From: Escherichia coli
Lineage (GTDB): Bacteria; Pseudomonadota; Gammaproteobacteria; Enterobacterales; Enterobacteriaceae
Strand: one strand, 5' to 3'
Assembly: GCF_001677475.2 (NCBI RefSeq)
Contig: NZ_CP015229.1
Length of the DNA stretch: 64,000 nt
In this document: in pieces, positions 14,508-48,551 of the stretch
Position numbering within the stretch: position 1 is the first letter of the stretch
Layout: each line of letters starts with the position of its first letter
Program-made: the position numbers and the translations under genes
The notes under the pieces: generated by a model
Seen by the model: the letters and a program-made list of their open reading frames with translations, nothing else
Told to the model about the DNA's origin: nothing
Databases searched by the model: none

Positions 14508-14592
14508 GTAAGCGTAAACCGACCGCCGTATGTAGCCATTAGACAAGAATTGGTAACTTAGACGCCCATCTGACACAGACGGACATCTAAGT

Positions 14593-15012
14593 ATGGAATT
14601 ACAGGACTGGCGAAAAGAACCTCGTAAAAAGTATTCGAATGAATTCAAACTTCGTATGGTTGAACTGGCATCACAACCCGGTGCTTGTGTGGCTCAGATT
14701 GCACGAGAAAATGGCGTCAATGATAATGTTATTTTCAAATGGCTCAGACTCTGGCAAAACGAAGGGCGTATATCACGGCGTCTTCCGGTGACAACCACTT
14801 CTGATGCAGGCCTTGAATTATTACCTGTAGAGATAACCTCTGATGAGCCGAAAGAACCGATGGCTGCTCTTACTCCGCCCTTATCCACTCAGACTACTGT
14901 CAGTGCCAGCTCCTGCAAGGTGGAGTTCCGTCACGGTAACATGACGCTGGAAAATCCTTCACCAGAGCTGCTCACTGTATTGATTCGTGAACTGACCGGG
15001 AGGGGAAGATGA
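14593..15012 (+). CDS. IS66 family accessory protein (orfA/TnpA)
   Basis: 139 aa with HTH-like N-terminus; first gene of the IS66 triad. Confidence 0.85.
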   Translation: MELQDWRKEPRKKYSNEFKLRMVELASQPGACVAQIARENGVNDNVIFKWLRLWQNEGRISRRLPVTTTSDAGLELLPVEITSDEPKEPMAALTPPLSTQTTVSASSCKVEFRHGNMTLENPSPELLTVLIRELTGRGR

Positions 15013-15359
15013 TCTCACTCCCATCCGGTACCCGTATCTGGCTCGTTGCCGGGATAACCGATATGCGTAAGTCTTTCAACGGGCTGGGTGAACAGGTACA
15101 GCATGTGTTAAATGTTAATCCCTTCTCCGGTCACCTGTTTATCTTCCGTGGCCGACGGGGTGACACCGTTAAAATTCTTTGGGCTGATGCTGATGGTCTG
15201 TGCCTGTTCACCAAACGCCTGGAGGAAGGCCAGTTTATCTGGCCTGCGGTGCGTGACGGTAAGGTATCCATTACCCGCTCGCAACTGGCAATGCTCCTCG
15301 ATAAGCTGGACTGGCGTCAGCCAAAAACATCCCGCCTTAACGCCCTGACAATGTTGTAA
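15009..15359 (+). CDS. IS66 family accessory protein (orfB/TnpB)
   Basis: 116 aa; ATGA overlap with orfA. Confidence 0.85.
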   Translation: MISLPSGTRIWLVAGITDMRKSFNGLGEQVQHVLNVNPFSGHLFIFRGRRGDTVKILWADADGLCLFTKRLEEGQFIWPAVRDGKVSITRSQLAMLLDKLDWRQPKTSRLNALTML

Positions 15360-15389
15360 AAAACGCCTGGCCGCATTATAAAAACGGCC

Positions 15390-16982
15390 ATGAGTCAGAA
15401 ATACCTCATTCGCATTGCAGAACTGGAAAGCCAGCTCCGTCAGAAAGACCAGCAACTGAGTCTGGTTGAAGAGACGGAGGCCTTCCTGCGCTCTGCACTG
15501 GCACGTGCCGAAGAAAAGATCGAAGAAGATGAACGGGAAATAGAACATCTGCGGGCTCAGATAGAAAAACTGCGCCGGATGCTGTTCGGTACCCGTTCTG
15601 AAAAACTGCGTCGTGAAGTTGAACAGGCTGAGGCCCTGCTGAAACAACGCGAACAGGACAGCGATCGTTACAGTGGGCGGGAAGACGATCCACAGGTTCC
15701 CCGCCAGTTGCGACAGTCGCGCCATCGTCGTCCGTTACCGGCACACCTTCCCCGTGAAATACACCGTCTGGAGTCTGAAGAAAGTTGTTGCCCGGAATGT
15801 GGCGGCGAGCTGGATTATCTGGGGGAAGTCAGTACTGAGCAGCTGGAACTGGTGAGCAGCGCCCTGAAAGTGATCCGCACAGAACGGGTAAAAAAAGCCT
15901 GTACAAAATGTGACTGCATCATTGAAGCACCGGCGCCGTCCCGCCCGATAGAGCGTGGTATCGCGGGCCCCGGATTACTTGCCCGCGTGTTAACGGGAAA
16001 ATACTGCGAACACCTGCCACTGTATCGTCAGAGTGAAATCTTTGCCCGACAGGGTGTCGAACTGAGCCGTGCATTACTCTCCAACTGGGTTGACGCGTGC
16101 TGCCAGTTAATGATGCCGCTGAATGATGCCCTGTACCGTTATGTGATGAATACCCGCAAGCTTCACACTGACGACACACCGGTAAAGGTACTGGCACCGG
16201 GCTTGAAAAAGACGAAAACAGGGCGCATCTGGACGTATGTCCGGGATGATCGCAATGCGGGTTCGTCATCTCCTCCGGCGGTCTGGTTCGCGTACTCACC
16301 GAACCGGCAGGGGAAACACCCGGAGCAACACCTCCGCCCCTTCCGGGGTATCCTGCAGGCGGATGCGTTCACAGGTTATGACAGGCTGTTCAGTGCAGAA
16401 CGTGAAGGTGGTGCGCTGACAGAAGTTGCGTGCTGGGCCCATGCCCGGAGAAAAATCCACGATGTATACATCAGCAGCAAAAGTGCGACGGCAGAAGAAG
16501 CCCTGAAGCGAATCAGTGAACTGTACGCCATCGAGGATGAAATACGGGGATTACCAGAGTCAGAGCGTCTTGCAGTCAGACAGCAGCGAAGCAAAGCGTT
16601 ACTGACGTCGCTGCATGAATGGATGGTGGAGAAGAATGGCACGCTGTCGAAAAAATCCAGACTGGGCGAAGCGTTCAGCTATGTACTGAATCAGTGGGAC
16701 GCCCTCTGTTATTACAGTGATGACGGACTGGCGGAGACGGACAATAACACAGCGGAAAGAGCGCTTCGTGCAGTCTGTCTTGGAAAGAAAAATTACGTGT
16801 TCTTCGGTAGCGATCACGGTGGCGAGCGTGGTGCACTGCTATACGGGCTGATCGGCACCTGCCGTCTGAACGGTATCGATCCGGAAGCGTATCTGCGCCA
16901 TATTCTGAGCGTACTGCCGGAATGGCCCTCCAACCGTGTTGACGAACTCCTGCCATGGAACGTGGTTCTCACCAATAAATAA
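15390..16982 (+). CDS. IS66 family transposase (TnpC)
   Basis: 530 aa with N-terminal coiled coil/leucine zipper, CxxC zinc-finger motifs and DDE-type core. Confidence 0.9.
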   Translation: MSQKYLIRIAELESQLRQKDQQLSLVEETEAFLRSALARAEEKIEEDEREIEHLRAQIEKLRRMLFGTRSEKLRREVEQAEALLKQREQDSDRYSGREDDPQVPRQLRQSRHRRPLPAHLPREIHRLESEESCCPECGGELDYLGEVSTEQLELVSSALKVIRTERVKKACTKCDCIIEAPAPSRPIERGIAGPGLLARVLTGKYCEHLPLYRQSEIFARQGVELSRALLSNWVDACCQLMMPLNDALYRYVMNTRKLHTDDTPVKVLAPGLKKTKTGRIWTYVRDDRNAGSSSPPAVWFAYSPNRQGKHPEQHLRPFRGILQADAFTGYDRLFSAEREGGALTEVACWAHARRKIHDVYISSKSATAEEALKRISELYAIEDEIRGLPESERLAVRQQRSKALLTSLHEWMVEKNGTLSKKSRLGEAFSYVLNQWDALCYYSDDGLAETDNNTAERALRAVCLGKKNYVFFGSDHGGERGALLYGLIGTCRLNGIDPEAYLRHILSVLPEWPSNRVDELLPWNVVLTNK

Positions 16983-17012
16983 GCGTCAATACGGTGCTCC
17001 GTTGACGCTTAC

Positions 17013-19451: not shown

Positions 19452-20684
19452 ATGAATGATAATTTTTTAACGGAGAAAGTCCTTACTGGAGAGAATGTTC
19501 TGCGTGCAGCAATTGCTCGTATTGAGTGGATTTTTGAAACATTTCCATCAGTTTGTCTCTCTTTTTCCGGTGGTAAAGATTCCACCGTGCTTTTCCATCT
19601 TGTGGCTGATGTGGCCCGCAGGAAAAGACGTCGTTTCTCTGTACTGTTCATTGACTGGGAGGCTCAGTACCAGTGCACCATTGAACATATTCAGAAGATG
19701 CGGGAAATGTACTATGATGTGACGGAAACCTTTTACTGGGTGGCGCTTCCCCTGACCACGGTAAACGGTGTCTCGCAGTTTCAACCGGAGTGGATATGCT
19801 GGGAGCCTCGTGTGACCTGGGTTCGCCAGCCACCGGAAGAGGCCATTACGGATATGGCGTATTTTCCCTTTTACCGGTATGCCATGGCGTTTGAAGAATT
19901 TGTTCCGGCATTTTCTTCCTGGTTTGCTGGCAACCGGTGTGGAGTGGCAGTGCTGACCGGTGTCCGGGCGGATGAATCCCTCAACCGCTTTATGGGACTG
20001 GTGTCCCAGCGCAAACTGAGATATGCCAATGATAAGCCTTGGACCACGGCATCGCCTGAAGGGTTTTACTACACTATGTATCCGCTGTATGACTGGAAAA
20101 CTCGTGATATCTGGATATATCACACCAGAACCCGTGCCATCTACAATCCCCTGTATGATCTGATGTACCGTGCCGGCGTACCGTTACGCAACATGCGTGT
20201 CTGTGAACCTTTTGGTCCTGAACAACGTAAGGGACTGTGGCTTTACCATGTTCTGGAACCGGAAACCTGGGCCAGGATGTGTGAGCGGGTGTCAGGGGCT
20301 GCCAGCGGGGCACTTTATGCCAATGAAAGCGGGGCTTATTTTGCCCTGCGTAAGCGCATATCAAAACCAGCCCATCATACCTGGCGCAGCTATGCGATGT
20401 TTCTGCTGGATGTGATGCCGGAAAGAACGGCAGAACATTACCGCAACAAGATAGCTGTCTATCTGCGCTGGTATCAGACGCGGGGCTTCCCGGATGACAT
20501 CCCGGATGAACAGGAGAATGACCTGGGGAGCCGGGATATTCCGTCCTGGCGACGTATCTGTAAGACTCTCATAAAGAATGATTTCTGGTGCCGTACCCTC
20601 TCCTTCAGTCCGAACAAACCCCGGCACTATGAACGTTATCTGCAGCGTATGAAAGAAAGGAGGAAGGAATGGGGGATTCTGTGA
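19452..20684 (+). CDS. ibrA: PAPS-reductase-like protein, IbrA-like (co-activator of prophage gene expression)
   Basis: 410 aa with SGGKDS PP-loop motif near the N-terminus; partnered with a ParB-like gene as in the described ibrAB pair. Confidence 0.75.
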   Translation: MNDNFLTEKVLTGENVLRAAIARIEWIFETFPSVCLSFSGGKDSTVLFHLVADVARRKRRRFSVLFIDWEAQYQCTIEHIQKMREMYYDVTETFYWVALPLTTVNGVSQFQPEWICWEPRVTWVRQPPEEAITDMAYFPFYRYAMAFEEFVPAFSSWFAGNRCGVAVLTGVRADESLNRFMGLVSQRKLRYANDKPWTTASPEGFYYTMYPLYDWKTRDIWIYHTRTRAIYNPLYDLMYRAGVPLRNMRVCEPFGPEQRKGLWLYHVLEPETWARMCERVSGAASGALYANESGAYFALRKRISKPAHHTWRSYAMFLLDVMPERTAEHYRNKIAVYLRWYQTRGFPDDIPDEQENDLGSRDIPSWRRICKTLIKNDFWCRTLSFSPNKPRHYERYLQRMKERRKEWGIL

Positions 20685-21307
20685 CACCGGAGATACTGAG
20701 CAACATGATTCGTCAGTACTTCAGCCAGGAACGACCAGAAGAAGAGGCCATACAGGCCCTGAATCATCTGCGCAGGGTGCTTCATGAGGTCAGTCCATTT
20801 GCACAGGAGCCTGTGGACTGTGTGCTGTGGGTGAAAGCAGATGAGGTGGTGGCCAACGATTATAACCCCAATGTCATGGCGCCGGGTGAGAAGAAACTGC
20901 TGAAACATTCACTGGAGCAGGATGGGTTCACGCAGCCTGTGGTTGTCTCGGAAGAGAAGGAGCATTATCTGGTCGTGGATGGTTTTCATCGTCAATTACT
21001 GGGCAGGGAAGCAGGTACGGGAAAACGCCTGAAGGGCTGGTTGCCAGTGACCTGTATTAATCCGGAAAGAAAGGGACAGGCCTCACGTATTGCTGCAACC
21101 ATTAGACATAACCGGGCCAGGGGGAAGCACCAGATAACTTCAATGTCTGATATTGTCAGGGACCTGTCGCGGCTGGGCTGGACGGATGAACGTATTGGTA
21201 CGGAGCTGGGTATGGACCAGGATGAAGTTCTCAGGTTGAAACAGATTAGCGGGCTGACGGAGCTGTTTCTGGAAGAGGATTTCAGTCCGGCATGGACGGT
21301 TCGCTGA
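20669..21307 (+). CDS. ibrB: ParB-like nuclease domain protein, IbrB-like
   Basis: 212 aa; overlaps the ibrA 3' end by 16 nt; ParB/Srx-type N-terminal region. Confidence 0.7.
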   Translation: MGDSVTPEILSNMIRQYFSQERPEEEAIQALNHLRRVLHEVSPFAQEPVDCVLWVKADEVVANDYNPNVMAPGEKKLLKHSLEQDGFTQPVVVSEEKEHYLVVDGFHRQLLGREAGTGKRLKGWLPVTCINPERKGQASRIAATIRHNRARGKHQITSMSDIVRDLSRLGWTDERIGTELGMDQDEVLRLKQISGLTELFLEEDFSPAWTVR

Positions 21308-22755: not shown

Positions 22756-24954
22756 CTACTGAAGGTGTTTCTGCAGCCAGATGCACGTTCCTTTTATATC
22801 ATACGCCTGTGCCCCATACCCTTTAGCAAGCAAAGTCTCTGGTAAATACTCGTCATATTTATCCAGATACTTGTCGGGAACAACTGCAGCAAGCTCAAAC
22901 TCTGAAGGTAGCCCCGACAATAGCATTTTCTTAAGTGCACGCTGGACAGAGGCAACGCCTGAGTCCTCTACCTCTATCACACCTGCAAATGAACTGGCTT
23001 TAAAGCCACAACGTATAATCAGGGACGTAATTGTATTGACAATTTTATCCCCCATCCACGGGATCACGTAGCAGTTCTGACCACTGGCAATAAAACAGTC
23101 ATTTTGTAGATTGTAGCGTTGGAAGTTGTCACTTCCTTCCGCGAAGAGGCTTCTGGCTGCGGCATCAGCATAATCGACTCTCTTGTTGCCTACCGCGATA
23201 CGGTAATCATTTTCCCTGTAGATAGTGAGCATTTCCTGGCGAACAACATCATGAACAGACATCCCGGTACCACTGAATAGTGGCGGCTGACCGCCTTTAG
23301 TCGTCTCAACATAGATAACCTTTTTTTCAACCTCGATCTCTGTCACTTTCCAGCGCCGTCCGCCGAAGATGATGTGCTGCTCCGGCAAAAGTGGGGAGTC
23401 TACAGGCACTGTGCCAAGAGTTCGGTTTCCCGTTACAATGCGAAACTCCTCAGGTGTATTGAATACGGCATAAAACGTGTAGTGATTAGTCAGCTTCTCC
23501 CCCTCAGCCCCGACAACTATTTCACCGCTGGTTAGTTGAGTGAGCAGGCCACATGTCCCCATATGTTTAAGCAGACTTTTGAAGTCATTTATATCCACAT
23601 TCCGGAACGGACCTGTCTGGCAAAGTTGTGACCAGAGCTGATCGGCACGAACACCTCCCCATTGCGCAGTAATAGCCAGGATCTGGTGTAGTAGTGTGGA
23701 GTAATGTTTCTGCCGGATATCTGCAGGCTCGAACCAGCGCTTAGAGATCATCAACCTGATCATTGCCATCGCCTGAACCAACTGCAGCCGTAAATGATCC
23801 ACAATGCTGCTGGTTGCGGTAAGTTCAGGTTCAGTAATTAACATTCTCAGCACCGATGGGGAATCGCGCCGCCCTGAACGTCCCATGCGTTGACGCAGAC
23901 TGGAAACAGAATGCGGAGGTGTCACTTGTATGACAGACTGCACCTTACCAATATCAATACCCAGCTCCAGCGTCATTGTACAAACAGCGGTTGTGGGCAA
24001 ATTCCCTTTCTGCAGTCGGGCTTCAAGCGCCTCACGCAACTCCCTTGCAAGGGAACCATGATGAGGAAAGAATTCATTAGGAACGACATTTGCTTCACAC
24101 ATGTCGCTCAGTGTTGCCGCTATGCTTTCAGTACGCTTTCGACTGTTAGCAAAGACCAGGTGGGAATCGCCACGGCAGAGCCTGAAAATATCCGCGCAGA
24201 CGAGCTGTTCAGCAGAGCTCTGGAGCTCTTCTCCTTTTTCGGGCACCCGCTCAAGATAACCTTTAACCTGAACCTGTAGTGTGGCTTTGCTATTACTGTC
24301 TGTTACCGTTTCACAAGGTAATCTCTTATCCGGGCGCAATAGTTCTGGTACTTTTTCCAGCTCTCCCAGCGTGGCACTCAACGCGACACGGGGAACTGGA
24401 TTCAACTGGCGTCCCAGCACATGGTCAATTCTGTTAAGCAGAGAAAGCAGCTGTATACCACGCTCTGAGCCAATAAAAGCATGGAACTCATCAATAACAA
24501 TGTATGCCACAGAAGAAAACGCCTGTTTGAGCCAACCCAATGAGTTTATGAGCAAAGACTCAAGTGATTCAGGTGTGATAAGTAAGATGCCAGAAGGGGT
24601 TGTCCGTGCTTTCTTCTTTTTGCTTTGTGGTACATCCCCGTGCCAGGGCGTCACTTGCATTTCCAGGGCTTCACCAAGACTCTCAAGACGACGGTGTTGA
24701 TCGTTAATTAATGCCTTCAATGGACTGATATAGATAATGCCAAATCCACCAGTGAGATCTGCAATCGCTGAACAGGCAGGAAGAAAGAAAGCCTCTGTTT
24801 TACCCGCAGCTGTACCTGCACTAATTAGTACATCACGATCACGGGCTAAAATTGCCGGAATAGAGCTTTCCTGCAAGGGCCTTAAGGATGACCAGCCCTG
24901 CTTATAAACCCACTTACGGACACGGGGATCAAGACTATTGTAGGCACTACTCAT
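22756..24954 (-). CDS. SF2 DExH-box helicase (Lhr-like), third gene of a candidate defence operon (SngC-like)
   Basis: 732 aa with motif I AGTAAGKT, motif II DEFH, motif III SAT, motif VI QRMGRSGRR; ATGA start/stop overlap with the upstream ATPase gene. Confidence 0.8.
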   Translation of the reverse strand: MSSAYNSLDPRVRKWVYKQGWSSLRPLQESSIPAILARDRDVLISAGTAAGKTEAFFLPACSAIADLTGGFGIIYISPLKALINDQHRRLESLGEALEMQVTPWHGDVPQSKKKKARTTPSGILLITPESLESLLINSLGWLKQAFSSVAYIVIDEFHAFIGSERGIQLLSLLNRIDHVLGRQLNPVPRVALSATLGELEKVPELLRPDKRLPCETVTDSNSKATLQVQVKGYLERVPEKGEELQSSAEQLVCADIFRLCRGDSHLVFANSRKRTESIAATLSDMCEANVVPNEFFPHHGSLARELREALEARLQKGNLPTTAVCTMTLELGIDIGKVQSVIQVTPPHSVSSLRQRMGRSGRRDSPSVLRMLITEPELTATSSIVDHLRLQLVQAMAMIRLMISKRWFEPADIRQKHYSTLLHQILAITAQWGGVRADQLWSQLCQTGPFRNVDINDFKSLLKHMGTCGLLTQLTSGEIVVGAEGEKLTNHYTFYAVFNTPEEFRIVTGNRTLGTVPVDSPLLPEQHIIFGGRRWKVTEIEVEKKVIYVETTKGGQPPLFSGTGMSVHDVVRQEMLTIYRENDYRIAVGNKRVDYADAAARSLFAEGSDNFQRYNLQNDCFIASGQNCYVIPWMGDKIVNTITSLIIRCGFKASSFAGVIEVEDSGVASVQRALKKMLLSGLPSEFELAAVVPDKYLDKYDEYLPETLLAKGYGAQAYDIKGTCIWLQKHLQ

Positions 24955-26267
24955 AATCTGAAATTCGCCAGGCCATCATCGTCATCACTTTCCTCCACAA
25001 TGGCATCATCCATATCGCTGAGCTTGTCTTCTTCAATCGCCACCCCCTCAATGAGGGTTTGCCAGTTCATCGTTCTGTTTTGTTCCAGCACAGCCAGCAT
25101 ATCCAGAAAACCTTTTATGGTATTGCGGGGAGTTCGAAAGTAAGCATCTCCGATGGTTTTGCTGCAGTGATGCAGAAACCCGGTCAGAGCATCATCTGGC
25201 ACCAGATAATTTGCGGGATCTCCACCAGCATAAACATGACGAAGGTTTTTCAGTAAAATATACAGTTCCTCAGGAGTGAGGCTGGCAAGATGCAGCGTGG
25301 GGGACGAGTAGTCAATCACGCCAGCTTTCTGTGCGAATCGGTTTTCTGCCAGACGCGACTGGAGCGCTTCATAGCTGTAGAGCCCCTTACGTGGATCGAA
25401 AAGAAATTCTGGCGTCCCCCCGAGGATAAAACCAATATTTTCGGCGGAGCCTTGCAGGCAGTCATTCAGGATCCGCAAAATTTGTTCGTAGTTGGCCGTT
25501 CTCGCTTGCGTATTATTCAACTTGAAGAGGTTCACCATCTCGTCGAGGCTAACTAAAAGTCCGGCATAGCCTGCCTGACGGACAAAAAGGCTCATCAACT
25601 TCAAAGAATCATAGAACGAGGCGTCTGAGATAATCGTTCGGACGTCAAGATCATTACGGGCATCAGTTTTTGTGGTGTACTCGCCCCGCAACCAGCGAAT
25701 AGCATTGGATTTTAAGGTTTCGTTATCCTGCTCATGCCCGCGCCAGAATGCGTCAATGACCTTCGCAAAGTCATATCCTCCCACCATATCTGACAAAGCA
25801 GCAAGGCGTTTATGAATAACGGATGAGACCAGGGAGCCGTTCGCATCAGCTTCCTTCCTTGCCTCAGTAACAAACCTTTCCACAACGCTAAGTAATGCAT
25901 TGCCATCTGGTTTGTTTCTGGTGGACATATTTTTCATAAGCTCTGAGTAGAGATTACGAGCCTGACCTCCCGATGAGTGGATACGTCTGTCGGGAGAAAG
26001 GTCTGCACTGACCGTGACCAGCTTCTTCTCTAACGCAATAGACCGTACAACACTTAAAAAGAATGTTTTCCCGGAACCGTACTCACCAATGATAAGTCTG
26101 AAGCTTGCCCCGCCATCAGCAATCCGTTCAATATCCTGATGGAGGGCGGTTATCTCATTCACGCGGCCAACCTGGATATGCTGAATACCTATTCTTGGCG
26201 TTACTCCCGACTTAAGTGACTGAATGATAGCGTCGCGCTCTTTCACTCTTATACGTGTTACAGACAT
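24951..26267 (-). CDS. P-loop ATPase, second gene of the candidate defence operon (SngB-like)
   Basis: 438 aa with Walker A GEYGSGKT and Walker B-like LLVSLDEM; acidic C-terminus. Confidence 0.8.
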   Translation of the reverse strand: MSVTRIRVKERDAIIQSLKSGVTPRIGIQHIQVGRVNEITALHQDIERIADGGASFRLIIGEYGSGKTFFLSVVRSIALEKKLVTVSADLSPDRRIHSSGGQARNLYSELMKNMSTRNKPDGNALLSVVERFVTEARKEADANGSLVSSVIHKRLAALSDMVGGYDFAKVIDAFWRGHEQDNETLKSNAIRWLRGEYTTKTDARNDLDVRTIISDASFYDSLKLMSLFVRQAGYAGLLVSLDEMVNLFKLNNTQARTANYEQILRILNDCLQGSAENIGFILGGTPEFLFDPRKGLYSYEALQSRLAENRFAQKAGVIDYSSPTLHLASLTPEELYILLKNLRHVYAGGDPANYLVPDDALTGFLHHCSKTIGDAYFRTPRNTIKGFLDMLAVLEQNRTMNWQTLIEGVAIEEDKLSDMDDAIVEESDDDDGLANFRL

Positions 26268-26270
26268 TCA

Positions 26271-28580
26271 CTAACCCTCTAATTCTTTGGCTATTTCCAG
26301 GTCAATCCAAATGTGATCATCAGCATCTTCCAGCACTGGTGCATCAACCACCGCATAGGACCAATCGTTAATCACCTCAAGCGCACCGCCGAGCATCAGG
26401 TTCCAGTTACTACACAACTCTGTCGCCTCTTTTCTGGACCATTGTTCTTTCTCCAGCAACCTGCGATAAAGTTGGCTATGAGCGGAGTCAAGTCCCCCTT
26501 CCCCGGTTAATGAGGCTGGAGCGCTTTCTGGTTGTTCTGGTTCTTCTTCAGTGAAAATTGAGTTCAGTAATTTACGAACATCATCAGTGGCAGATTCGTG
26601 GCGGGCAAGTACGTTGGCATCCAGCGTAAACCCTGCCGTCGACTGATTAGCTGGTACAGATGAAACGAGAGCAGTTTCAGTTGCGGAATGCTGATGGATA
26701 TTGCTTGATACGGATGAGGGATCCAGTCCCAGGCTTGTATAAATCTTCTCAAGCTGTTTGATTTCGGCAGGCGTAATTCTGCCGTCAGAGCAAGCGACAC
26801 TAACGATAACCTTACCCACAGCTGATTTTTCCGCTGCACCGAGTAATTCAATCCGGCTTTTCATTCCCGTCATATTCGCCGGAGTATGAAGCTGCCACGT
26901 TAAATATGCGTGCAGAGAGCGCTTTTCATCATCGCTGAAGCTGGCATTGTTGTTGATGGCATTCTCAAGCACTTTCTGTTCGGCTTGATCGAGAGAATTG
27001 TCAATCAAGGCGACTACCGAACCTAATCGGAGCGTCAATACAGCTGTGATAAATTCAGGAGAAGGTGAGAAACGTCCTCTTTCACCAGCAGGGAATAAAA
27101 CAAGTACACCATCGACATCTGCCTTTACGTGGTGGTGATAGGGGTCAGGAGCCAGACAGTATCCCATTTTCTGTGCAAAGGCTTGCATTAAGTCGGCCTC
27201 TTTTTTATTGATCTTCGCCGGACAGGTGGCATTCATATGTGACCAGTAGTCAGCAACTGAAACTATCCCACCCTTACTGCGGATTGCGTCATCAGCCCAG
27301 TGTTTGAATGTACTTAATATTTTTTCTGCGCTTTCGTTAACGATTTCTGAAGGCAGCAACAAAATTGCAGCGGTATCATTTGCTGAAGTACCTTTTCTAC
27401 CAAGGTAACGACTGTAAGCATCCAGTTCACCTGTGCATATATCGGCAATGGCCATAAGCTTCTGAACAGGGCCTTTCAATGCACCTGGATCAGGCAAGTC
27501 GGGAACAGGAAGCCGAATACCTCGCAAACTGGGACTTGCAGGCGTGTAATCTAAACGCAGACGCGCTTTATTCGGCTTCACTACCATCCCTTCACCGTAT
27601 TTAAGGGTGTAACGCCGTTTAAATAGTGCAGCAAATTCTTTCGCACAGCGGCGGGCGGGGGTTCGTAATGAGTATTCAGCATGGTTTGTCACCCACGTCA
27701 GAGCCAGATCCGCTGGAACCGGGGCTCCTGTATCAACAGTCTTTGCCAGGATTAACCTGAACTGCATGCTATTGCTGAACTCCGAATCATCGTTGAGAGC
27801 TGCTGCAAGATTTTCGTTCGGACGAAGAATGGACATCGCTTCAAGTAACTGGGATGAGTAATTCCGGAAAGATCGGTTTTCATTGAAAACCGATCTGAGA
27901 CGGCAGATCTCTTTGAAAAGAGAATAGAACTCATCGTCGGATATATTGTTGTCCCTGCTGTCAACAAGCGCCCTTCTTTCCAGACCATACAGATAAATGA
28001 AAACGTAACCAATTGGGCAGGAAGTGTCGCATCTGTCGCTGGCAAGCCAACTCAGGTACGCACCACGAGCTTCAGGTGAAAGTGAGGAAAAACTGGGCCA
28101 ATACCCTAATGAACTATCTTCGTAAATGTAAGGTGTGGGGGATATTTTAAGCGTGTCGTCAACTAGCGATGCCTCGTTATTGCCATCATAATAACCGCCT
28201 GAGTTATGCCCGGCAGGTTTCATACGCTGCCCAAGATAGAAGTGACCGCCGGTAACCTCTATCCCACTGACTGTGATCATCTCTCCCGGAAAAATCCAAC
28301 GAGCCAAAGCACCGGTAGTTTTTGAGAAATTCTGGCGTTGAGTGGCTGTTATGCTGTATTCGACATTCCGCCCGCCACTTAGTGTAAACGTAGCCAGATT
28401 GTCATCTTCGCTGTCCTCGTTTTGCATTACAGACTGATTTTTTTTGTTGTTAGCAAGCCATTCTTTAGGTGGTGCTTTCACAGGAGCGGAAGTATAAGAG
28501 CCCGCGGACTTAGTTTTCTTCTTTTTGAAAAAAAGAATATAAATCAAATAAATAGCTACTATAAATATCCATAACTCCAT
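26271..28580 (-). CDS. large N-terminally membrane-anchored protein, first gene of the candidate defence operon (SngA-like; TerB domain not verified)
   Basis: 769 aa; N-terminal hydrophobic helix MELWIFIVAIYLIYILFF followed by KKKK; 3-nt spacing to the ATPase gene. Confidence 0.7.
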   Translation of the reverse strand: MELWIFIVAIYLIYILFFKKKKTKSAGSYTSAPVKAPPKEWLANNKKNQSVMQNEDSEDDNLATFTLSGGRNVEYSITATQRQNFSKTTGALARWIFPGEMITVSGIEVTGGHFYLGQRMKPAGHNSGGYYDGNNEASLVDDTLKISPTPYIYEDSSLGYWPSFSSLSPEARGAYLSWLASDRCDTSCPIGYVFIYLYGLERRALVDSRDNNISDDEFYSLFKEICRLRSVFNENRSFRNYSSQLLEAMSILRPNENLAAALNDDSEFSNSMQFRLILAKTVDTGAPVPADLALTWVTNHAEYSLRTPARRCAKEFAALFKRRYTLKYGEGMVVKPNKARLRLDYTPASPSLRGIRLPVPDLPDPGALKGPVQKLMAIADICTGELDAYSRYLGRKGTSANDTAAILLLPSEIVNESAEKILSTFKHWADDAIRSKGGIVSVADYWSHMNATCPAKINKKEADLMQAFAQKMGYCLAPDPYHHHVKADVDGVLVLFPAGERGRFSPSPEFITAVLTLRLGSVVALIDNSLDQAEQKVLENAINNNASFSDDEKRSLHAYLTWQLHTPANMTGMKSRIELLGAAEKSAVGKVIVSVACSDGRITPAEIKQLEKIYTSLGLDPSSVSSNIHQHSATETALVSSVPANQSTAGFTLDANVLARHESATDDVRKLLNSIFTEEEPEQPESAPASLTGEGGLDSAHSQLYRRLLEKEQWSRKEATELCSNWNLMLGGALEVINDWSYAVVDAPVLEDADDHIWIDLEIAKELEG

Positions 28581-28809
28581 GAGGCAGTAACCTTAAAAAT
28601 AGCTTTTCACGCACACCAAAAAGGATGACGATGGGAAGTGGATTAATCTCAAAATAATACTTCTAAATTAAAAAGGTTAAAAGCAAATCACAACCTTCCT
28701 GAGCTTCCGCTTTTCTCTTTCAGAGGGCTGAAGTCGTTATCTGTAACCAGAGGAGATCAGTAGCCCGTTATGCCAGCTAAAGCACTCCGGGCAGATTGCC
28801 CGGAGTGCT

Positions 28810-28990
28810 TAATATTTTAATGGATTGTTAATCTTCGCATACTCAAAGGGGCTGGTATTTTCTTTCGAGTTTGTATCCAGAAAATCCCCCCACCACTGTA
28901 GCATCAACCGACGCTATTCCAGGTGTTCTGTTTTATGGATATAAGCCGCCCTTAATGAATTACGTTCCATGTGGCTCATCTGACGTTCAG
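28810..28990 (-). pseudogene. remnant of the 3' end of a second P4-type integrase gene
   Basis: ~180 bp closely similar to the 3' end of the intact integrase gene at 31928 (encodes ...AKINNPLK-like C-terminus); same flanking hairpin CCGGGCA...TGCCCGG. Confidence 0.6.
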
Positions 28991-29208
28991 CCGCTTTATC
29001 TCGTGCTGTTTTGGTCTTAATACTTCCATGCCGCTGCGATTACCTCTTAAACCCGCCCTTACCATTTTTATGGGTACGATAAGAAAACTTTATCGGGCAC
29101 GATCGATTTTATCGATCGATTCGATCGAAAACATTCCTTTTACCCTATCTTTTGCATGGTTTTAGAATGAGCAACCCCATTTATCGTTCGGGGAAAGTGA
29201 TAGCGGAG

Positions 29209-29958
29209 ATGATTGAAATGAATAAGGTTATTGCGGTTTCAGCGCTTGCCATGGCAGGCATGTTTTCGACCCAGGCTCTGGCTGATGAGAGCAAAACAGG
29301 CTTTTATGTGACCGGTAAAGCAGGTGCTTCTGTTATGTCACTTGCAGACGAGCGTTTCCTGTCGGGTGATGGAGAGGAAACATCAAAATATAAAGGCGGT
29401 GATGGCCATGATACGGTATTCAGTGGCGGTATCGCGGCCGGTTATGATTTTTACCCGCAGTTCAGTATTCCGGTTCGTACGGAACTGGAGTTTTACGCTC
29501 GTGGAAAAGCTGATTCGAAGTATAACGTAGATAAAGACAGCTGGTCAGGCGGTTACTGGCGTGATGACCTGAAGAATGAGGTGTCAGTCAACACACTGAT
29601 GCTGAATGCGTACTATGACTTCCGGAATGACAGTGCATTCACACCATGGGTATCTGCAGGGATTGGCTACGCCAGAATTCACCAGAAAACAACCGGTATC
29701 AGTACCTGGGATTATGGGTACGGAAGCAGTGGTCGCGAATCGTTGTCACGTTCAGGCTCTGCTGACAACTTCGCATGGAGCCTTGGCGCGGGTGTCCGCT
29801 ATGACGTAACCCCGGATATCGCTCTGGACCTCAGCTATCGCTATCTTGATGCAGGTGACAGCAGTGTGAGTTACAAGGACGAGTGGGGCGATAAATATAA
29901 ATCAGAAGTTGATGTTAAAAGTCATGACATCATGCTTGGTGTGACTTATAACTTCTGA
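29209..29958 (+). CDS. putative outer-membrane beta-barrel protein
   Basis: Signal peptide (…AMAGMFSTQALA), alternating beta-strand-like pattern, C-terminal ...LGVTYNF with terminal Phe. Confidence 0.55.
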   Translation: MIEMNKVIAVSALAMAGMFSTQALADESKTGFYVTGKAGASVMSLADERFLSGDGEETSKYKGGDGHDTVFSGGIAAGYDFYPQFSIPVRTELEFYARGKADSKYNVDKDSWSGGYWRDDLKNEVSVNTLMLNAYYDFRNDSAFTPWVSAGIGYARIHQKTTGISTWDYGYGSSGRESLSRSGSADNFAWSLGAGVRYDVTPDIALDLSYRYLDAGDSSVSYKDEWGDKYKSEVDVKSHDIMLGVTYNF

Positions 29959-30109
29959 CAAAACTGCTCCTGAAAGATAATAATTACCCATCTTCTGTAA
30001 TTAAACGAAGACTCCCTGCAGTAATTATACTGCAGGGTTGTTTGTTATCTGTTTCACAGGAGACTTCTGATTTTTATTCTCTTCACAATAATGTTGTCGA
30101 TATACTCCG

Positions 30110-31609
30110 ATGAATATCAGAAAGCTGTTTTATACGGACAATATATCCCGGATTTTATTGTTTTTATTCTTCCCGGGCATGTGTGTAATAACCACTGCCG
30201 CATGCGGATACACTGAGAAGAATGCCACCGGGAATGTGTTGCTGCTGTTTCTCCTTCTGATTCTTGCACACAGAAATACCCTTACATCCATTACAGCTCT
30301 GTTATTTCTGTTCTGTTGTGCACTGTATGCACCTGTCGGTATGACGTACGGAAAAATCAACAACAGTTTTATTGTCGCGTTGTTGCAGACCACGGCGGAT
30401 GAGGCTGCGGAGTTTACCGGGATGATTCCTGTTTATCATTTTCTGGTCAGTGCCGCGATTCTGGTGTTCATGGTTATTTTCTGGCGGACACACCACCGTG
30501 GTCAACGTAACGCGATGGCTCTGTTGTTATTCGTATTATGCTCTGTAAACAGCTGGCCGTTACGGATGGTTAAAGGAACAGTTGTGGGGACAACTGACAC
30601 ATTGCGTGAAATGCAGCGTTATGAACAACTGAGTCGGCACGGTGCTGACAGCTGGAAAATCCTGCCGGGAGCACCATTATATGACACGATTGTTATTGTT
30701 ACTGGTGAGAGTGTCCGCAGGGATTATATGTCGGTATATGGTTATCCCGAGCCAACCACACCATGGCTGAATACGGCTCCCGGTTTATTTATTGACGGTT
30801 ATACATCGGCAGCAGCCAGCACCGTGCCTTCCCTGAGCCGGACACTGATTTATGACTATGAGCAGAACCCTGATTCCGGCAACAACGTGGTGGCGCTGGC
30901 AGCAAAAGCAGGATACAGCACATGGTGGATATCCAATCAGGGAAAACTGGGAGAGCATGACACACGCATCTCTGTTATTGCTTCTGATGCGGACCATACT
31001 GTTTTCCTCAAGAAAGGCAGCTTTGCTTCCCGTAAAACGGATGACATGTTGTTGTTACAGGAAACAGAACGTGCGCTGGCAGATACATCCACTCCGAAGG
31101 TGATTTTCCTGCACATGATGGGGTCTCATCCGAACCCGTGTGATCGGCTTCACTCCTGGCAGAATAATTACCTGGAGCAGTATTCCCGAAAAATTGCCTG
31201 TTATCTTGCCAGCATCAGTAAACTGGATAACTTTCTTGGTCAGCTTGATGGTATCCTTCGCCGACACTCACGTCATTTCGCCATGCTTTACTTTTCTGAC
31301 CATGGGCTGTCGGTCAGCGACAGTGCTAATCCTGTTCATCATGATGGTCATGTGCAGGGAGGCTACAGCGTGCCCCTGATTATTACCGCCAGTGATATAA
31401 CCTCTCATCAGTCCCTCAGCAGAAAAATCAGTGCCCGTCATTTCACAGGTATTTTTCAGTGGCTGACCGGTATTCGTACCGAAAATATACCGCCATTCAA
31501 TCCACTGACAGACGAAGATAATGAACGCATTATGGTTTTTAACGGAGAGAGGTATGTACAGGAAGACAGTCTGAAACCGCAGCCGCTTATTCTTCCGGAC
31601 CACAGGTAA
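30110..31609 (+). CDS. sulfatase-family phosphoethanolamine transferase-like membrane protein
   Basis: 499 aa; N-terminal transmembrane segments then IVIVTGESVRRDYMSVYGY and HMMGSHPNPCDR motifs resembling EptA/YhbX-type enzymes. Confidence 0.6.
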   Translation: MNIRKLFYTDNISRILLFLFFPGMCVITTAACGYTEKNATGNVLLLFLLLILAHRNTLTSITALLFLFCCALYAPVGMTYGKINNSFIVALLQTTADEAAEFTGMIPVYHFLVSAAILVFMVIFWRTHHRGQRNAMALLLFVLCSVNSWPLRMVKGTVVGTTDTLREMQRYEQLSRHGADSWKILPGAPLYDTIVIVTGESVRRDYMSVYGYPEPTTPWLNTAPGLFIDGYTSAAASTVPSLSRTLIYDYEQNPDSGNNVVALAAKAGYSTWWISNQGKLGEHDTRISVIASDADHTVFLKKGSFASRKTDDMLLLQETERALADTSTPKVIFLHMMGSHPNPCDRLHSWQNNYLEQYSRKIACYLASISKLDNFLGQLDGILRRHSRHFAMLYFSDHGLSVSDSANPVHHDGHVQGGYSVPLIITASDITSHQSLSRKISARHFTGIFQWLTGIRTENIPPFNPLTDEDNERIMVFNGERYVQEDSLKPQPLILPDHR

Positions 31610-31927
31610 TCATATATGGCAAACTGTAATACAGTTGCTTGTACTGAAAAGTATTCTGTATAAAACAGAATCCGTATTCATATCAGCACAAGGGACCACC
31701 AAATCCCGGCAGTATTCCTTACGTCAGTTATCCCGCATCACTCTGTGAGTGAGTTTTTTTATGAGGTTACTTTTTCATTGAATATAAATAATGAATAACC
31801 GCAGATTCTGATAATCCTCCTCCAGGGAACAATCAGGTAAACAGTAAATACATCAGTTAATACCATTTTGTCTTTTTAACAAAGAAAATATTCATGGAGT
31901 AAGTTCCCGGGCATTTGCCCGGGATGA

Positions 31928-33193
31928 TTACTGTTTTAATGGATTATTAATCTTTGCATATTCAAATGGACTGATAAATCTTTCTCTGTTTGCATCCAGA
32001 AAATCGGCCCACCATTGTAGCATCAAGCGGCGTTCTTCCAGATGTTCTGCTTTATGAATGTAAGCAGCACGTACACCGTTACGTTCCTGATGGCTCATCT
32101 GACGTTCAACAGCATCGCGGGACCACAAACCTGATTCTATTAACGCACTACATGCCATCGCCCGGAACCCATGACCACAGACATCCCGGGTTGTGTCATA
32201 CCCCATAACCCTCAGGGCTTTATTTACGGTGTTTTCACTGATTGGTTTACGTGGGTCATGTGCTCCCGTAAAGATCAGACCATTTTCACCAGCCCATGTC
32301 TGAAGTTCTGCCAGTATGGCTACAGCCTGTTTGCTGAGTGGCACAAGATGTGGTGTTCGCATCTTGGATCCCCGGTGTGAGAATTTTACGCCTGGCAGAG
32401 GTTCGCGCTCAGCTGGAATAGTCCACATGGCATTGTCAATATCAATTTCCGACCAGCGGGCATATCTGAGTTCACTGGAACGAATAAAAACCAGTAAATT
32501 CAGCATAACTGCCAGTTGGGTGACAGGCTGGCCTTTATAACCGTCAATACGCGACAGAAGTTCAGGCAGGCGTGAAAGATCCAGAGCAGGGCGGTGCTGG
32601 CGTTTTACCGTGGTCAATGCACCAGCCATATCCAGAGCCGGGTTATATCTGATGATGCCAGACTGTACGGCATAACGCATTACAGCAGATATTCTTTGCT
32701 GCAGACGACTGGCGATTTCATAAATTTGTTTAGCTTCTGCAGCACGAACAGGGATAAGCAGGTCCGGGGTACTGAGTGTTGTGATATCCCGGTTGCCGAT
32801 AAAGGGGAAAACGTGTGTCTCGAGGCTTTTGAGTACTTTATCGCTGTGTGATTGTGCCCATTGTTTATTACTGACATGCCAGCGTCGTGCAATATGTTCA
32901 AAAGAGAGTTGTAAATCAGGGACTACTTTTTTAGCTCTTTTCTGTTCGCAAGGGTCAATCCCCTCCGAAATCAGTTTTCGGGCCTCATCCCGTTTTGTAC
33001 GAGCTTCGGAGAGAGAAACTTCCGGATACACACCAAGTGCCAGAGTCTTCTCCTTACCCAGAATACGATAACGGAGACGCCAGTAACGGGAACCATTGGG
33101 ATGTACCAGCAGGAACATGCCAGCCCCGTCAGTGAGTTTATAAGCCTTGTCAGTGGGCTTTGCAGCCCGGATTTTTGCGTCAGTCAGTGCCAT
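31928..33193 (-). CDS. P4-type tyrosine integrase
   Basis: 421 aa, MALTDAKIRAAKPTDKAYKLTDG... typical of P4-like integrases; adjacent to the pheV 3' end. Confidence 0.9.
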   Translation of the reverse strand: MALTDAKIRAAKPTDKAYKLTDGAGMFLLVHPNGSRYWRLRYRILGKEKTLALGVYPEVSLSEARTKRDEARKLISEGIDPCEQKRAKKVVPDLQLSFEHIARRWHVSNKQWAQSHSDKVLKSLETHVFPFIGNRDITTLSTPDLLIPVRAAEAKQIYEIASRLQQRISAVMRYAVQSGIIRYNPALDMAGALTTVKRQHRPALDLSRLPELLSRIDGYKGQPVTQLAVMLNLLVFIRSSELRYARWSEIDIDNAMWTIPAEREPLPGVKFSHRGSKMRTPHLVPLSKQAVAILAELQTWAGENGLIFTGAHDPRKPISENTVNKALRVMGYDTTRDVCGHGFRAMACSALIESGLWSRDAVERQMSHQERNGVRAAYIHKAEHLEERRLMLQWWADFLDANRERFISPFEYAKINNPLKQ

Positions 33194-33347
33194 AGTTCAG
33201 CCTTCTGAATGCGTTAAAGAGGGTACAAATTCTGTCGAACTGGGGTATACCCGCAATTATACCCACACAATGGGGTTGATGTGGGGGGAATCTGGTTGAG
33301 TTCGGTAGAATTGATTTGGAGGAAGAACACTTAAATCATGGTGTTCT

Positions 33348-33381
33348 GAAACGAAAAACGGACCTCCGTGGAGGTCCGTTG
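33348..33381 (-). terminator. terminator downstream of pheV
   Basis: Hairpin GGACCTCCACGGAGGTCC followed by a T-run on the minus strand. Confidence 0.6.
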
Positions 33382-33390
33382 ATATGAATT

Positions 33391-33466
33391 TGGTGCCCGG
33401 ACTCGGAATCGAACCAAGGACACGGGGATTTTCAATCCCCTGCTCTACCGACTGAGCTATCCGGGC
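33391..33466 (-). tRNA. pheV: tRNA-Phe (GAA anticodon)
   Basis: Reverse complement reads GCCCGGATAGCTCAGTCGGTAGAGCAGGGGATTGAAAATCCCCGTGTCCTTGGTTCGATTCCGAGTCCGGGCACCA. Confidence 0.95.
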
Positions 33467-33571
33467 AACGGGGCGCATTAAACCTGATTCGCCTCGTCTC
33501 GTCAATCAAATTTCTTCAATTTAGTGCAGACTGCACAATCTATCATCACTTTGCCGCTATTGCACGCATTT

Positions 33572-34300
33572 TCAGGCAAACCAGGCGGTCCAGGCGGCGG
33601 AAAGCGGCATTGCCAGAAGGAGTGCTGGAAGCATGTTGACCACCGGGAACATTTTAATGCCACAGATGCGTAATCCGGTTGCCAGCAGCAATAAACCGCC
33701 TACGGCGCTGAAGTCTGCCATCATCGACGGTGTGGTCAGCGGTAATATCAGCGCGGCAGCCCACGCCAGCGTTAACTGGATGATCAGTAATGGGATACTA
33801 ATTACCGACACCGCAATACCCAACGAGCAGGCGAAGATCATCGCCGTAAAGAAATCGAGAAATGACTTGGCGATTAAAATACTCGGATCGCCGGTCATCC
33901 CTTCGTTCATCGCCCCGAAGATCCCGGTGCCGCTGGCGCAAAACAGGACAATAATCGCGACATAATTCTGAATAAAAGATTCATGCGCTGGCTTCTTACG
34001 TGAGTGGCGAAACAGATTTTGTGCTTTGGTGACCGCGGTATTGACGCCTTTTTCCAGCAGACAAATTTCGCCGATTAATGCACCGAGTAAGGTTGCTAAC
34101 ACCATCGCAGGAAGGTTGGCGCATTTCACCACCAGTAAAATACCAATCCCCAGCGATGCCAGACCAAAAATTGATGTCATGGAGACGCGGATACGTTCCG
34201 GTAAGCGTTGGCTAAGGAGTGCACCGAGAACGCCACCCAGTAATACTGCACTTGCGTTGATAAAAGGACCGATGACCACAAGAGTTCCTGTTAGCTGCAT
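33572..34300 (-). CDS. yqgA: DUF554 family inner membrane protein
   Basis: Hydrophobic 242-codon ORF next to pheV as in the K-12 arrangement. Confidence 0.8.
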
Positions 34301-46046: not shown

Positions 46047-46076
46047 GTAAGCGTCAACGGAGCACCGTATTGACGC

Positions 46077-47669
46077 TTATTTATTGGTGAGAACCACGTT
46101 CCATGGCAGGAGTTCGTCAACACGGTTGGAGGGCCATTCCGGCAGTACGCTCAGAATATGGCGCAGATACGCTTCCGGATCGATACCGTTCAGACGGCAG
46201 GTGCCGATCAGCCCGTATAGCAGTGCACCACGCTCGCCACCGTGATCGCTACCGAAGAACACGTAATTTTTCTTTCCAAGACAGACTGCACGAAGCGCTC
46301 TTTCCGCTGTGTTATTGTCCGTCTCCGCCAGTCCGTCATCACTGTAATAACAGAGGGCGTCCCACTGATTCAGTACATAGCTGAACGCTTCGCCCAGTCT
46401 GGATTTTTTCGACAGCGTGCCATTCTTCTCCACCATCCATTCATGCAGCGACGTCAGTAACGCTTTGCTTCGCTGCTGTCTGACTGCAAGACGCTCTGAC
46501 TCTGGTAATCCCCGTATTTCATCCTCGATGGCGTACAGTTCACTGATTCGCTTCAGGGCTTCTTCTGCCGTCGCACTTTTGCTGCTGATGTATACATCGT
46601 GGATTTTTCTCCGGGCATGGGCCCAGCACGCAACTTCTGTCAGCGCACCACCTTCACGTTCTGCACTGAACAGCCTGTCATAACCTGTGAACGCATCCGC
46701 CTGCAGGATACCCCGGAAGGGGCGGAGGTGTTGCTCCGGGTGTTTCCCCTGCCGGTTCGGTGAGTACGCGAACCAGACCGCCGGAGGAGATGACGAACCC
46801 GCATTGCGATCATCCCGGACATACGTCCAGATGCGCCCTGTTTTCGTCTTTTTCAAGCCCGGTGCCAGTACCTTTACCGGTGTGTCGTCAGTGTGAAGCT
46901 TGCGGGTATTCATCACATAACGGTACAGGGCATCATTCAGCGGCATCATTAACTGGCAGCACGCGTCAACCCAGTTGGAGAGTAATGCACGGCTCAGTTC
47001 GACACCCTGTCGGGCAAAGATTTCACTCTGACGATACAGTGGCAGGTGTTCGCAGTATTTTCCCGTTAACACGCGGGCAAGTAATCCGGGGCCCGCGATA
47101 CCACGCTCTATCGGGCGGGACGGCGCCGGTGCTTCAATGATGCAGTCACATTTTGTACAGGCTTTTTTTACCCGTTCTGTGCGGATCACTTTCAGGGCGC
47201 TGCTCACCAGTTCCAGCTGCTCAGTACTGACTTCCCCCAGATAATCCAGCTCGCCGCCACATTCCGGGCAACAACTTTCTTCAGACTCCAGACGGTGTAT
47301 TTCACGGGGAAGGTGTGCCGGTAACGGACGACGATGGCGCGACTGTCGCAACTGGCGGGGAACCTGTGGATCGTCTTCCCGCCCACTGTAACGATCGCTG
47401 TCCTGTTCGCGTTGTTTCAGCAGGGCCTCAGCCTGTTCAACTTCACGACGCAGTTTTTCAGAACGGGTACCGAACAGCATCCGGCGCAGTTTTTCTATCT
47501 GAGCCCGCAGATGTTCTATTTCCCGTTCATCTTCTTCGATCTTTTCTTCGGCACGTGCCAGTGCAGAGCGCAGGAAGGCCTCCGTCTCTTCAACCAGACT
47601 CAGTTGCTGGTCTTTCTGACGGAGCTGGCTTTCCAGTTCTGCAATGCGAATGAGGTATTTCTGACTCAT
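46077..47669 (-). CDS. IS66 family transposase (TnpC)
   Basis: 530-aa translation identical to that of copy 1. Confidence 0.9.
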   Translation of the reverse strand: MSQKYLIRIAELESQLRQKDQQLSLVEETEAFLRSALARAEEKIEEDEREIEHLRAQIEKLRRMLFGTRSEKLRREVEQAEALLKQREQDSDRYSGREDDPQVPRQLRQSRHRRPLPAHLPREIHRLESEESCCPECGGELDYLGEVSTEQLELVSSALKVIRTERVKKACTKCDCIIEAPAPSRPIERGIAGPGLLARVLTGKYCEHLPLYRQSEIFARQGVELSRALLSNWVDACCQLMMPLNDALYRYVMNTRKLHTDDTPVKVLAPGLKKTKTGRIWTYVRDDRNAGSSSPPAVWFAYSPNRQGKHPEQHLRPFRGILQADAFTGYDRLFSAEREGGALTEVACWAHARRKIHDVYISSKSATAEEALKRISELYAIEDEIRGLPESERLAVRQQRSKALLTSLHEWMVEKNGTLSKKSRLGEAFSYVLNQWDALCYYSDDGLAETDNNTAERALRAVCLGKKNYVFFGSDHGGERGALLYGLIGTCRLNGIDPEAYLRHILSVLPEWPSNRVDELLPWNVVLTNK

Positions 47670-47699
47670 GGCCGTTTTTATAATGCGGCCAGGCGTTTT

Positions 47700-48050
47700 T
47701 TACAACATTGTCAGGGCGTTAAGGCGGGATGTTTTTGGCTGACGCCAGTCCAGCTTATCGAGGAGCATTGCCAGTTGCGAGCGGGTAATGGATACCTTAC
47801 CGTCACGCACCGCAGGCCAGATAAACTGGCCTTCCTCCAGGCGTTTGGTGAACAGGCACAGACCATCAGCATCAGCCCAAAGAATTTTAACGGTGTCACC
47901 CCGTCGGCCACGGAAGATAAACAGGTGACCGGAGAAGGGATTAACATTTAACACATGCTGTACCTGTTCACCCAGCCCGTTGAAAGACTTACGCATATCG
48001 GTTATCCCGGCAACGAGCCAGATACGGGTACCGGATGGGAGTGAGATCAT
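47700..48050 (-). CDS. IS66 family accessory protein (orfB/TnpB)
   Basis: Identical translation to copy 1. Confidence 0.85.
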   Translation of the reverse strand: MISLPSGTRIWLVAGITDMRKSFNGLGEQVQHVLNVNPFSGHLFIFRGRRGDTVKILWADADGLCLFTKRLEEGQFIWPAVRDGKVSITRSQLAMLLDKLDWRQPKTSRLNALTML

Positions 48051-48466: not shown

Positions 48467-48551
48467 ACTTAGATGTCCGTCTGTGTCAGATGGGCGTCTA
48501 AGTTACCAATTCTTGTCTAATGGCTACATACGGCGGTCGGTTTACGCTTAC

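Follow-up and report, generated by a model that had tools for sequence, protein, structure and literature searches.

Organization of the pheV island

The window analyzed here is a stretch of 64,000 nucleotides of Escherichia coli DNA (contig NZ_CP015229.1) with a genomic island beside a tRNA gene. The tRNA gene (33391–33466, minus strand), detected by ARAGORN and Rfam, encodes tRNA-Phe. Its neighbors are yqgA, yqgH, and speC; since it adjoins yqgA and lies in synteny with yqgA–speC, it is pheV, the attachment site of the island, where the initial annotation had already placed it. An Rfam search of positions 28400–33600 returned the tRNA and nothing else. Proceeding away from pheV, the island carries the integrase gene int1, a phosphoethanolamine transferase gene (ept), an outer-membrane protein (OMP) gene, a fragment of an integrase gene, and a three-gene operon on the minus strand. 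The segment 28000–34000 is 99.7% identical to strain S42 and 99.1% identical to strain 042, and is covered to at least 80% in 282 of 5,426 complete E. coli genomes.

The gene int1 (31928–33193, minus strand) is intact and encodes a P4-type integrase of 421 amino acids. The protein contains the Pfam domains Arm-DNA-bind_3, Phage_int_M, and Phage_integrase, and its C-terminal end reads ...AVERQMSHQERNGVRAAYIHKAEHLEERRLMLQWWADFLDANRERFISPFEYAKINNPLKQ. The gene is of the native pheV type: along int1 and the hairpin that follows it, the identity to the O157 pheV integrase (L013), which is free of the ept–OMP module, amounts to 87–100% per 60-nucleotide window. A drop in the identity of int1 to the pheV integrase of strain 15.03CC (L003), from 95–99% to 77% at the 3′ end, had suggested that int1 is a chimera. 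This possibility was rejected because of the whole-length match, hairpin included, to the O157 pheV integrase.

The transferase gene (30110–31609, plus strand) encodes a protein of the sulfatase fold. It is recognized by the Pfam model Sulfatase, scores below the curated cut-off of EptA_B_N, and owes its name to PGAP. The OMP gene (29218–29958, plus strand; Pfam OMP_b-brl) encodes an outer-membrane β-barrel adhesin of the Hra/Tia/Hek family and represents an hra1-type allele. Its product shares 68% amino-acid identity with a PGAP-named Tia protein and 99% with the OMP of an island at leuX (L005).

The three-gene operon, together with about 140 bp upstream of it, occupies positions 22756–28719 on the minus strand and is predicted to be a Shango anti-phage defense system. 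It is composed of sngA (26271–28580), sngB (24951–26267), and sngC (22756–24954), which would encode a TerB-N protein, an ATPase, and a helicase, respectively. The PADLOC E-values are 2.5e-99 for SngA, 8.7e-187 for SngB, and 4.6e-278 for SngC, and the Pfam domains found in the operon are TerB_N/TerB_C, BrxC_BrxD, and DEAD/Helicase_C. Upstream of Shango, at 19452–21307 on the plus strand, a PAPS-reductase-like and an IbrB-like gene form an ibrAB-type pair, for which PADLOC reports weak matches to BrxP and DndC.

Two IS66-family (ISEc23-like) copies of 2,505 bp each, at 14508–17012 and 46047–48551, are inverted relative to each other and 100% complementary. The 29-kb segment between them, which spans ibrAB, Shango, the integrase fragment, pheV, and yqgA, and extends to yggM, has the opposite orientation in strain S42. 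The two copies have exchanged their flanking 8-mers, which appear as reverse complements (GGCCAGCG/CGCTGGCC and TCTGCGC), the pattern that recombination between inverted IS copies would leave. None of the complete E. coli genomes is colinear with the window across either inversion junction.

The integrase fragment and the hairpins

The integrase fragment (28809–28994, minus strand) comprises the last 61 codons and the stop codon of a P4-type tyrosine integrase gene, 186 bp in total, and is interrupted by an internal TAG codon. The minus strand of 28812–28994 reads ...AAERQMSHMERNSLRAAYIHKTEHLE*RRLMLQWWGDFLDTNSKENTSPFEYAKINNPLKY, followed by a TAA stop codon at 28809–28811. Positions 28796–28994 align with the 3′ end of int1 (31915–32113) over 199 ungapped nucleotides at 78% identity, and the two segments constitute the longest direct-repeat pair within positions 1–34000 of the window. 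Pairwise alignment thus bears out the resemblance of about 180 bp to the 3′ end of int1 reported in the initial annotation, although "closely", as the resemblance was described there, is generous wording for 78% identity. The similarity to int1 ends exactly at 28994/28995.

By sequence homology, the fragment belongs to the P4-type integrase family, but its reading frame is incomplete and does not extend over the arm-binding, central, and catalytic domains. It is also not adjacent to a tRNA gene or an att site, as it lies 4.4 kb away from pheV, with int1 and two further genes in between. The fragment is a dead 3′ piece of a P4-type integrase gene, without activity of its own. Its counterpart in strain S42 is annotated by PGAP as "integrase; internal stop; incomplete; missing N-terminus"; the feature is real and ordinary in kind, and public E. 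coli genomes already list it as a pseudogene.

Judged by its sequence, the fragment derives from a second P4-type integrase, different from int1. It aligns with the integrase of L003 across 209 nucleotides at 85.8% identity, and none of the 5,426 genomes contains an intact integrase that is more than about 86% identical to it. A search of a large protein collection for the parent integrase returned short integrase tails only, with lengths of up to 106 residues and a best identity of 87–88%. In E. coli, Salmonella, Klebsiella, Sodalis, and Pantoea, many short C-terminal pieces of integrases (36–106 residues) carry a protein annotation, and dead integrase tails of the P4-type family appear to be common.

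Both integrase 3′ ends are followed by a hairpin. The type-1 hairpin, AAGCACTCCGGGCA-GAT-TGCCCGGAGTGCTT, is located at 28780–28810 and overlaps the stop codon of the fragment. It contains 14 base pairs and a tail AATATTTTAA, and its folding energy is −27.1 kcal/mol (z = −5.65). The type-2 hairpin, TCCCGGGC-ATTT-GCCCGGGA, is located at 31905–31924, ends three nucleotides from the int1 stop codon, and has eight core pairs and a folding energy of −19.9 kcal/mol (z = −5.33). None of 200 shuffled sequences folds as stably as either hairpin, and folding confirms the earlier claim of a hairpin after both copies. In a simple terminator scan, the type-1 hairpin passes on the plus strand only, on which it is terminator-like, and the type-2 hairpin is flagged on neither strand. 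A formal covariation test of the hairpin gave no signal; the two alleles misalign because of an indel. Comparison by eye of L003 with another fragment-bearing locus (L007) reveals one compensatory change, CACTCC/GGAGTG versus CAGTCC/GGACTG. The hairpins most likely act as putative end-of-gene terminator or stabilizer structures.

The pheV-type integrases can be sorted by sequence into two 3′-end alleles, type-1 and type-2. The live int1 has the type-2 3′ end and hairpin, whereas the tail of the fragment is of type-1. The intact pheV integrase of strain 15.03CC, which is not accompanied by the ept–OMP module, is followed by a sequence identical to the stop codon and hairpin at 28781–28811 in 31 of 31 positions. 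The O157 pheV integrase is likewise followed by the type-2 hairpin.

The fusion point and the neighboring modules

At 28994/28995, the integrase fragment is fused to a conserved region upstream of the OMP gene. The breakpoint sequence ...GTTCAGCCGC|TTTATCTCGTGCTGT... (with a longer left flank, ...GGCTCATCTGACGTTCAGCCGC|TTTATCTCGTGCTGT...) is identical in the five loci that were aligned. Past the breakpoint, intact integrases read ...ATCGCGGGACCACAAACC... instead. The conserved region, denoted U (28995–29217, plus strand), stretches for about 224 bp from the fusion point to the OMP start codon, and contains CGATCGAT-type palindromes and a promoter-like site at 29139–29168. It is 95.5% identical to its equivalent in the leuX island L005 and 82–83.5% identical to those of three tia-type or related loci (L004, L007, and L008). 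The nested CGATCGAT-type palindromes (CGATCGATTTTATCGATCGATTCGATCG) at 29090–29125 are conserved in all five aligned hra/tia loci and could be a candidate binding site for a regulator.

The fragment lies directly upstream of an Hra/Tia-family OMP gene in each of the five contexts inspected, and the DNA on its other side differs between them. In the window, at pheV, the fragment is followed by Shango. The island at leuX (L005) continues with IS1 and a type I restriction-modification system, and the island at selC (L004) with a second, partial copy of the transferase gene and KpLE2-like genes. A pap operon follows in L007, and type I restriction-modification genes follow in L008. The recurrence of this fusion point in the leuX and selC islands and in two others, each followed by different DNA, assigns the fragment to the pheV-proximal module. 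It probably represents the fixed distal end of a widespread module made up of the transferase gene, the OMP gene, U, and the fragment. The ept–OMP module itself is also present at pheU.

The junction is frequent in E. coli. A 500-nucleotide query spanning it (28901–29400) is covered to at least 80% in at least 1,068 of the 5,426 complete genomes, and intact integrases match this query only through its position 89–94, corresponding to 28989–28994 of the window. With a query of 28781–29060, about 270 genomes are near-identical and about 780 match at 80–90% identity; in the latter, the match always reaches the right end of the query, toward the OMP gene, and its left start varies. Sampled hits that reach the OMP upstream region keep at least about 63 bp of the fragment. 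Some OMP-family loci are without the fragment, as seen from match classes that start at positions 161–305 of the 28901–29400 query. In scans of one genome per bacterial species, an exact 33-mer of the junction had no match and an exact 20-mer had a single match, in Hymenobacter, presumably by chance. Within this species-representative sampling, the junction appears to be confined to the accessory genome of E. coli. Present in about one-fifth of complete E. coli genomes, the scar is a handy marker for the spread of the hra/tia module among pheV, pheU, leuX, and selC.

Individual islands display further rearrangements of this region. In the same pheV island of strain HCP4S3_I4 (L006, 10035–11400), an IS3-family element stands where the fragment, the OMP gene, and the transferase 5′ end would otherwise lie, and the hairpin with six nucleotides beyond it is all that remains of the fragment region. 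In the selC island (L004, 7521–9207), the fragment is followed by a type-2 hairpin and then by a second, truncated transferase gene. The arrangement resembles an incomplete second copy of the module in tandem, attached to the KpLE2-like genes nanX and nanY. In the pheU island of strain NT1F34 (L010, 8740–9407), a truncated OMP gene is joined to an inverted 409-bp piece of the Shango 5′ region, which ends at the same boundary as the cassette in the window, position 28719.

On the distal side, the homology of the Shango cassette to other loci stops at 28719, 62 bp short of the hairpin. The integrase-derived homology ends at 28780/28781, immediately past the hairpin; other copies carry on with a conserved ...ATTTTCTTTGTT... 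motif, which is absent from the window. No tRNA-like scar was found in the 60-bp spacer in between (28720–28779). In about 160 genomes, Shango is present at another chromosomal locus, and the matches to an 801-nucleotide query contain no integrase sequence. At L009, the sole such locus inspected, the nearby annotation lists no integrase fragment. None of the 5,426 genomes has an intact integrase immediately before Shango. Given the boundary at 28719 and the occurrence of the cassette elsewhere without the fragment, the operon is not demonstrably cargo of the island from which the fragment came. Shango is a separate next module, independent of the fragment. The division of the island proposed in the initial annotation, with a distal module that starts at the integrase remnant and carries the three-gene operon, is therefore corrected: the fragment closes the pheV-proximal adhesin module, and the Shango cassette is a unit of its own.

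Origin of the fragment and exchange in integrase 3′ ends

The sequence of the fragment is not uniform. Its junction-side third (28933–28994) matches leuX-type integrases and the fragment of L008 in 54 of 62 positions, and the pheV integrase of L003 in 46 of 62. The best match of its distal third (28812–28870) is L003, with 48 of 59 positions. Compared with L005, the window is identical in 40 of 44 positions next to the junction and to about 80% inside the fragment. These values, which rest on segments of 59–62 nucleotides, suggest that the fragment may be a mosaic of a leuX-type third near the junction, and a pheV type-1 allele in the distal third and the hairpin.

A live integrase bears a similar trace. 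The leuX integrase that lies beside the transferase gene (L005 12143–13408; L011 6744–7952) is a chimera of a leuX-type 5′ part and a pheV-type segment that comprises the last ~190 nucleotides and the hairpin. Up to nucleotide ~1200, the L005 gene is 90–100% identical to the leuX integrase of an island free of the ept–OMP module (L012 6742–8007). Its last ~190 nucleotides are 98–100% identical to the pheV type-2 end, and the homology continues downstream toward ept. The 5′ part of the L005 gene matches K-12-derived strains at 99.4% identity; those strains have a transferase pseudogene, and their annotation shows neither the OMP gene nor the fragment within 7 kb. From these alignments, recombination inside integrase 3′ ends is real, and it would also be the cause of the mosaic structure of the fragment. 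That the distal third and the hairpin represent a pheV-integrase allele different from that of int1 suggests that the fragment may once have served as an anchor for homologous recombination.

We infer a single origin of the fragment, through accretion and deletion. In the deep past, one integrase-headed unit would have landed in front of another, and a later deletion would have taken out the att repeat together with ~85% of the inner integrase gene, from its start onward. The resulting fusion at 28994/28995 would have arisen once and then been inherited into the islands at pheV and leuX, at selC, and in the two further islands. A recurrent breakpoint hotspot instead of a single event is very unlikely, because 224 bp are shared on the other side of the breakpoint. 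Because it is still homologous to live integrase genes at their 3′ ends, the fragment could act as a passive crossover point, and crossovers there would make the DNA distal to the fusion point, part of the fragment included, vary between islands. Such residual homology would explain both the mosaic sequence of the fragment and its varied distal neighbors. We regard this as the likely course of events: an old fusion, made once, was inherited as the distal end of the module and served as a passive recombination anchor. The scar at pheV is inherited ready-made. The explanation does not cover the entry of the module into the selC island, the integrase of which is only about 45% identical.

It is also possible, although we put this forward only tentatively, that the integrase tail and the 3′ ends of live P4-type integrase genes function as portable homology arms, which shuffle the transferase–adhesin module and the DNA distal to it between tRNA islands with otherwise unrelated integrases. 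Such a process would have left its footprints in the mosaic fragment and in the chimeric leuX integrase, the K-12 intB lineage included. If this is true, integrase 3′ ends are general exchange points for modules, independent of site-specific recombination. As a regular route of exchange, they would add a modest mechanistic detail to the mosaicism of pathogenicity and defense islands.

The direct repeats of the integrase 3′ end and hairpin that bracket the module also fit a Campbell-type insertion. A circle with an integrase 3′ end and its hairpin, joined to the transferase gene, the OMP gene, and U, would have undergone homologous recombination with the 3′ end of a resident integrase gene and so duplicated that end; the fragment would be the displaced tail of the resident pheV integrase. 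The L005 leuX integrase is chimeric at the position that such an insertion predicts, and the distal third and hairpin of the window fragment match a pheV-type allele. However, int1 is not chimeric. For L005, the insertion predicts a fragment with the native leuX tail, yet the tail observed is pheV-like, and the homology in L004 and L007 stops at the ept stop codon, with other genes between ept and the integrase. Simple Campbell insertion as the explanation for all loci is ruled out by the L005 tail, and by L004 and L007, where no integrase 3′ end is adjacent. Moreover, repeats that are 78% identical, with exact runs of at most 17 nucleotides, are a poor substrate for RecA, and the original fusion of U to the fragment still requires an illegitimate event. 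We therefore consider this origin of the fragment in the window improbable.

Somewhat less probable still is the proposal of the initial annotation in its full form, according to which two complete islands integrated successively into pheV in this lineage by site-specific recombination, and the older, distal one, with a cargo that begins with the three-gene operon, left its decayed integrase as the fragment. Accretion in tandem is an established process at tRNA genes, and mosaicism has been described for such islands (PMC11537424, PMC5539235). Two blocks of differing content are indeed separated by a second integrase 3′ end that has a hairpin of its own and lies distal to the first integrase in the same orientation, and the distal third and hairpin of the fragment are a pheV-type allele unlike that of int1. 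On the other side stand the identical fusion point in islands at leuX, selC, and elsewhere, with unrelated distal DNA, and the independent boundary of the Shango cassette, which also occurs elsewhere without the fragment.

The search for attachment-site repeats is also at odds with successive integration. Direct repeats of the pheV 3′ end had been expected at the module boundaries; 25-mers and 19-mers with up to three mismatches, and 15-mers with up to one, matched only pheV itself in the whole window. Matches of at least 11 nucleotides to the 3′ regions of pheV, leuX, and selC are missing from 28600–29300 and 31600–31930, and matches of at least 9 nucleotides are missing from U and the spacer. 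The only attR-like repeat, TTCGATTCCGAGTCCGG-CACCA, was found in S42, where it is imperfect and lies beside yghD, about 60 kb from pheV. Relatives in which one module stands alone at pheV, another expectation, did not turn up: Shango alone was seen only at a non-pheV locus, and no genome has an intact integrase directly before it. The junction is not specific to the locus either. Taken together, the shared junction, the independent Shango boundary, and the missing repeat leave no sign of two successive integrations at pheV in this lineage. What stands of the proposal of two tandem modules is the second integrase 3′ end at a content boundary, most simply derived from an ancient fusion of two units that were each headed by an integrase; successive integration at pheV in this lineage does not stand, as the junction is common to leuX and selC islands.

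That the fragment and its hairpin have been retained for a function, for instance as an insulator or terminator ahead of the OMP gene, or within its regulatory region, is the least probable explanation and hardly credible: the ~63 bp kept in the sampled hits, the strong hairpin that is terminator-like on the plus strand, and the single compensatory change seen by eye speak for it, but the left part and the hairpin are lost or replaced in many genomes that keep the OMP gene (IS1 in L005; truncation in L007 and L008), some OMP-family loci are without any fragment, more than 220 bp separate the fragment from the OMP start codon, and there is no covariation signal.

The hairpins resemble intrinsic terminators in that a GC-rich stem-loop follows right after the stop codon, and the copy at 28780–28810 has a T-rich tail on the plus strand. 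They differ from intrinsic terminators in the weak tail (UUUAGC) of the 28780–28810 copy on the integrase-sense strand, and in the int1 hairpin, which has no adjacent T-tract and is not flagged by the scan. The likeness of the locus to tandem accretion at one tRNA att site lies in the integrase-derived sequence distal to int1 in the same orientation, at a place where the content changes. It differs from such accretion in that the defining internal att repeat is absent here and the junction is not peculiar to pheV.

The closest likeness in overall organization is to the mosaic tRNA islands of E. coli, such as GI-pheV, LAA, SE-PAI, and LIC/LAC. The accessible literature on these islands, a body that excludes the hra papers Mancini 2011 and Bhargava 2009, makes no mention of an integrase fragment upstream of hra/tia, of the shared breakpoint, or of its mosaicism. 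The order of tRNA, integrase, sulfatase or transferase gene, and tia/hes/hra has been published for several tRNA sites (PMC11537424, PMC5539235, PMC6455142, PMC7371111). The island in the window shares with these islands a P4-type integrase beside pheV, a modular build with IS elements and module boundaries, and, as seen in S42, an imperfect attR only at the far island end.
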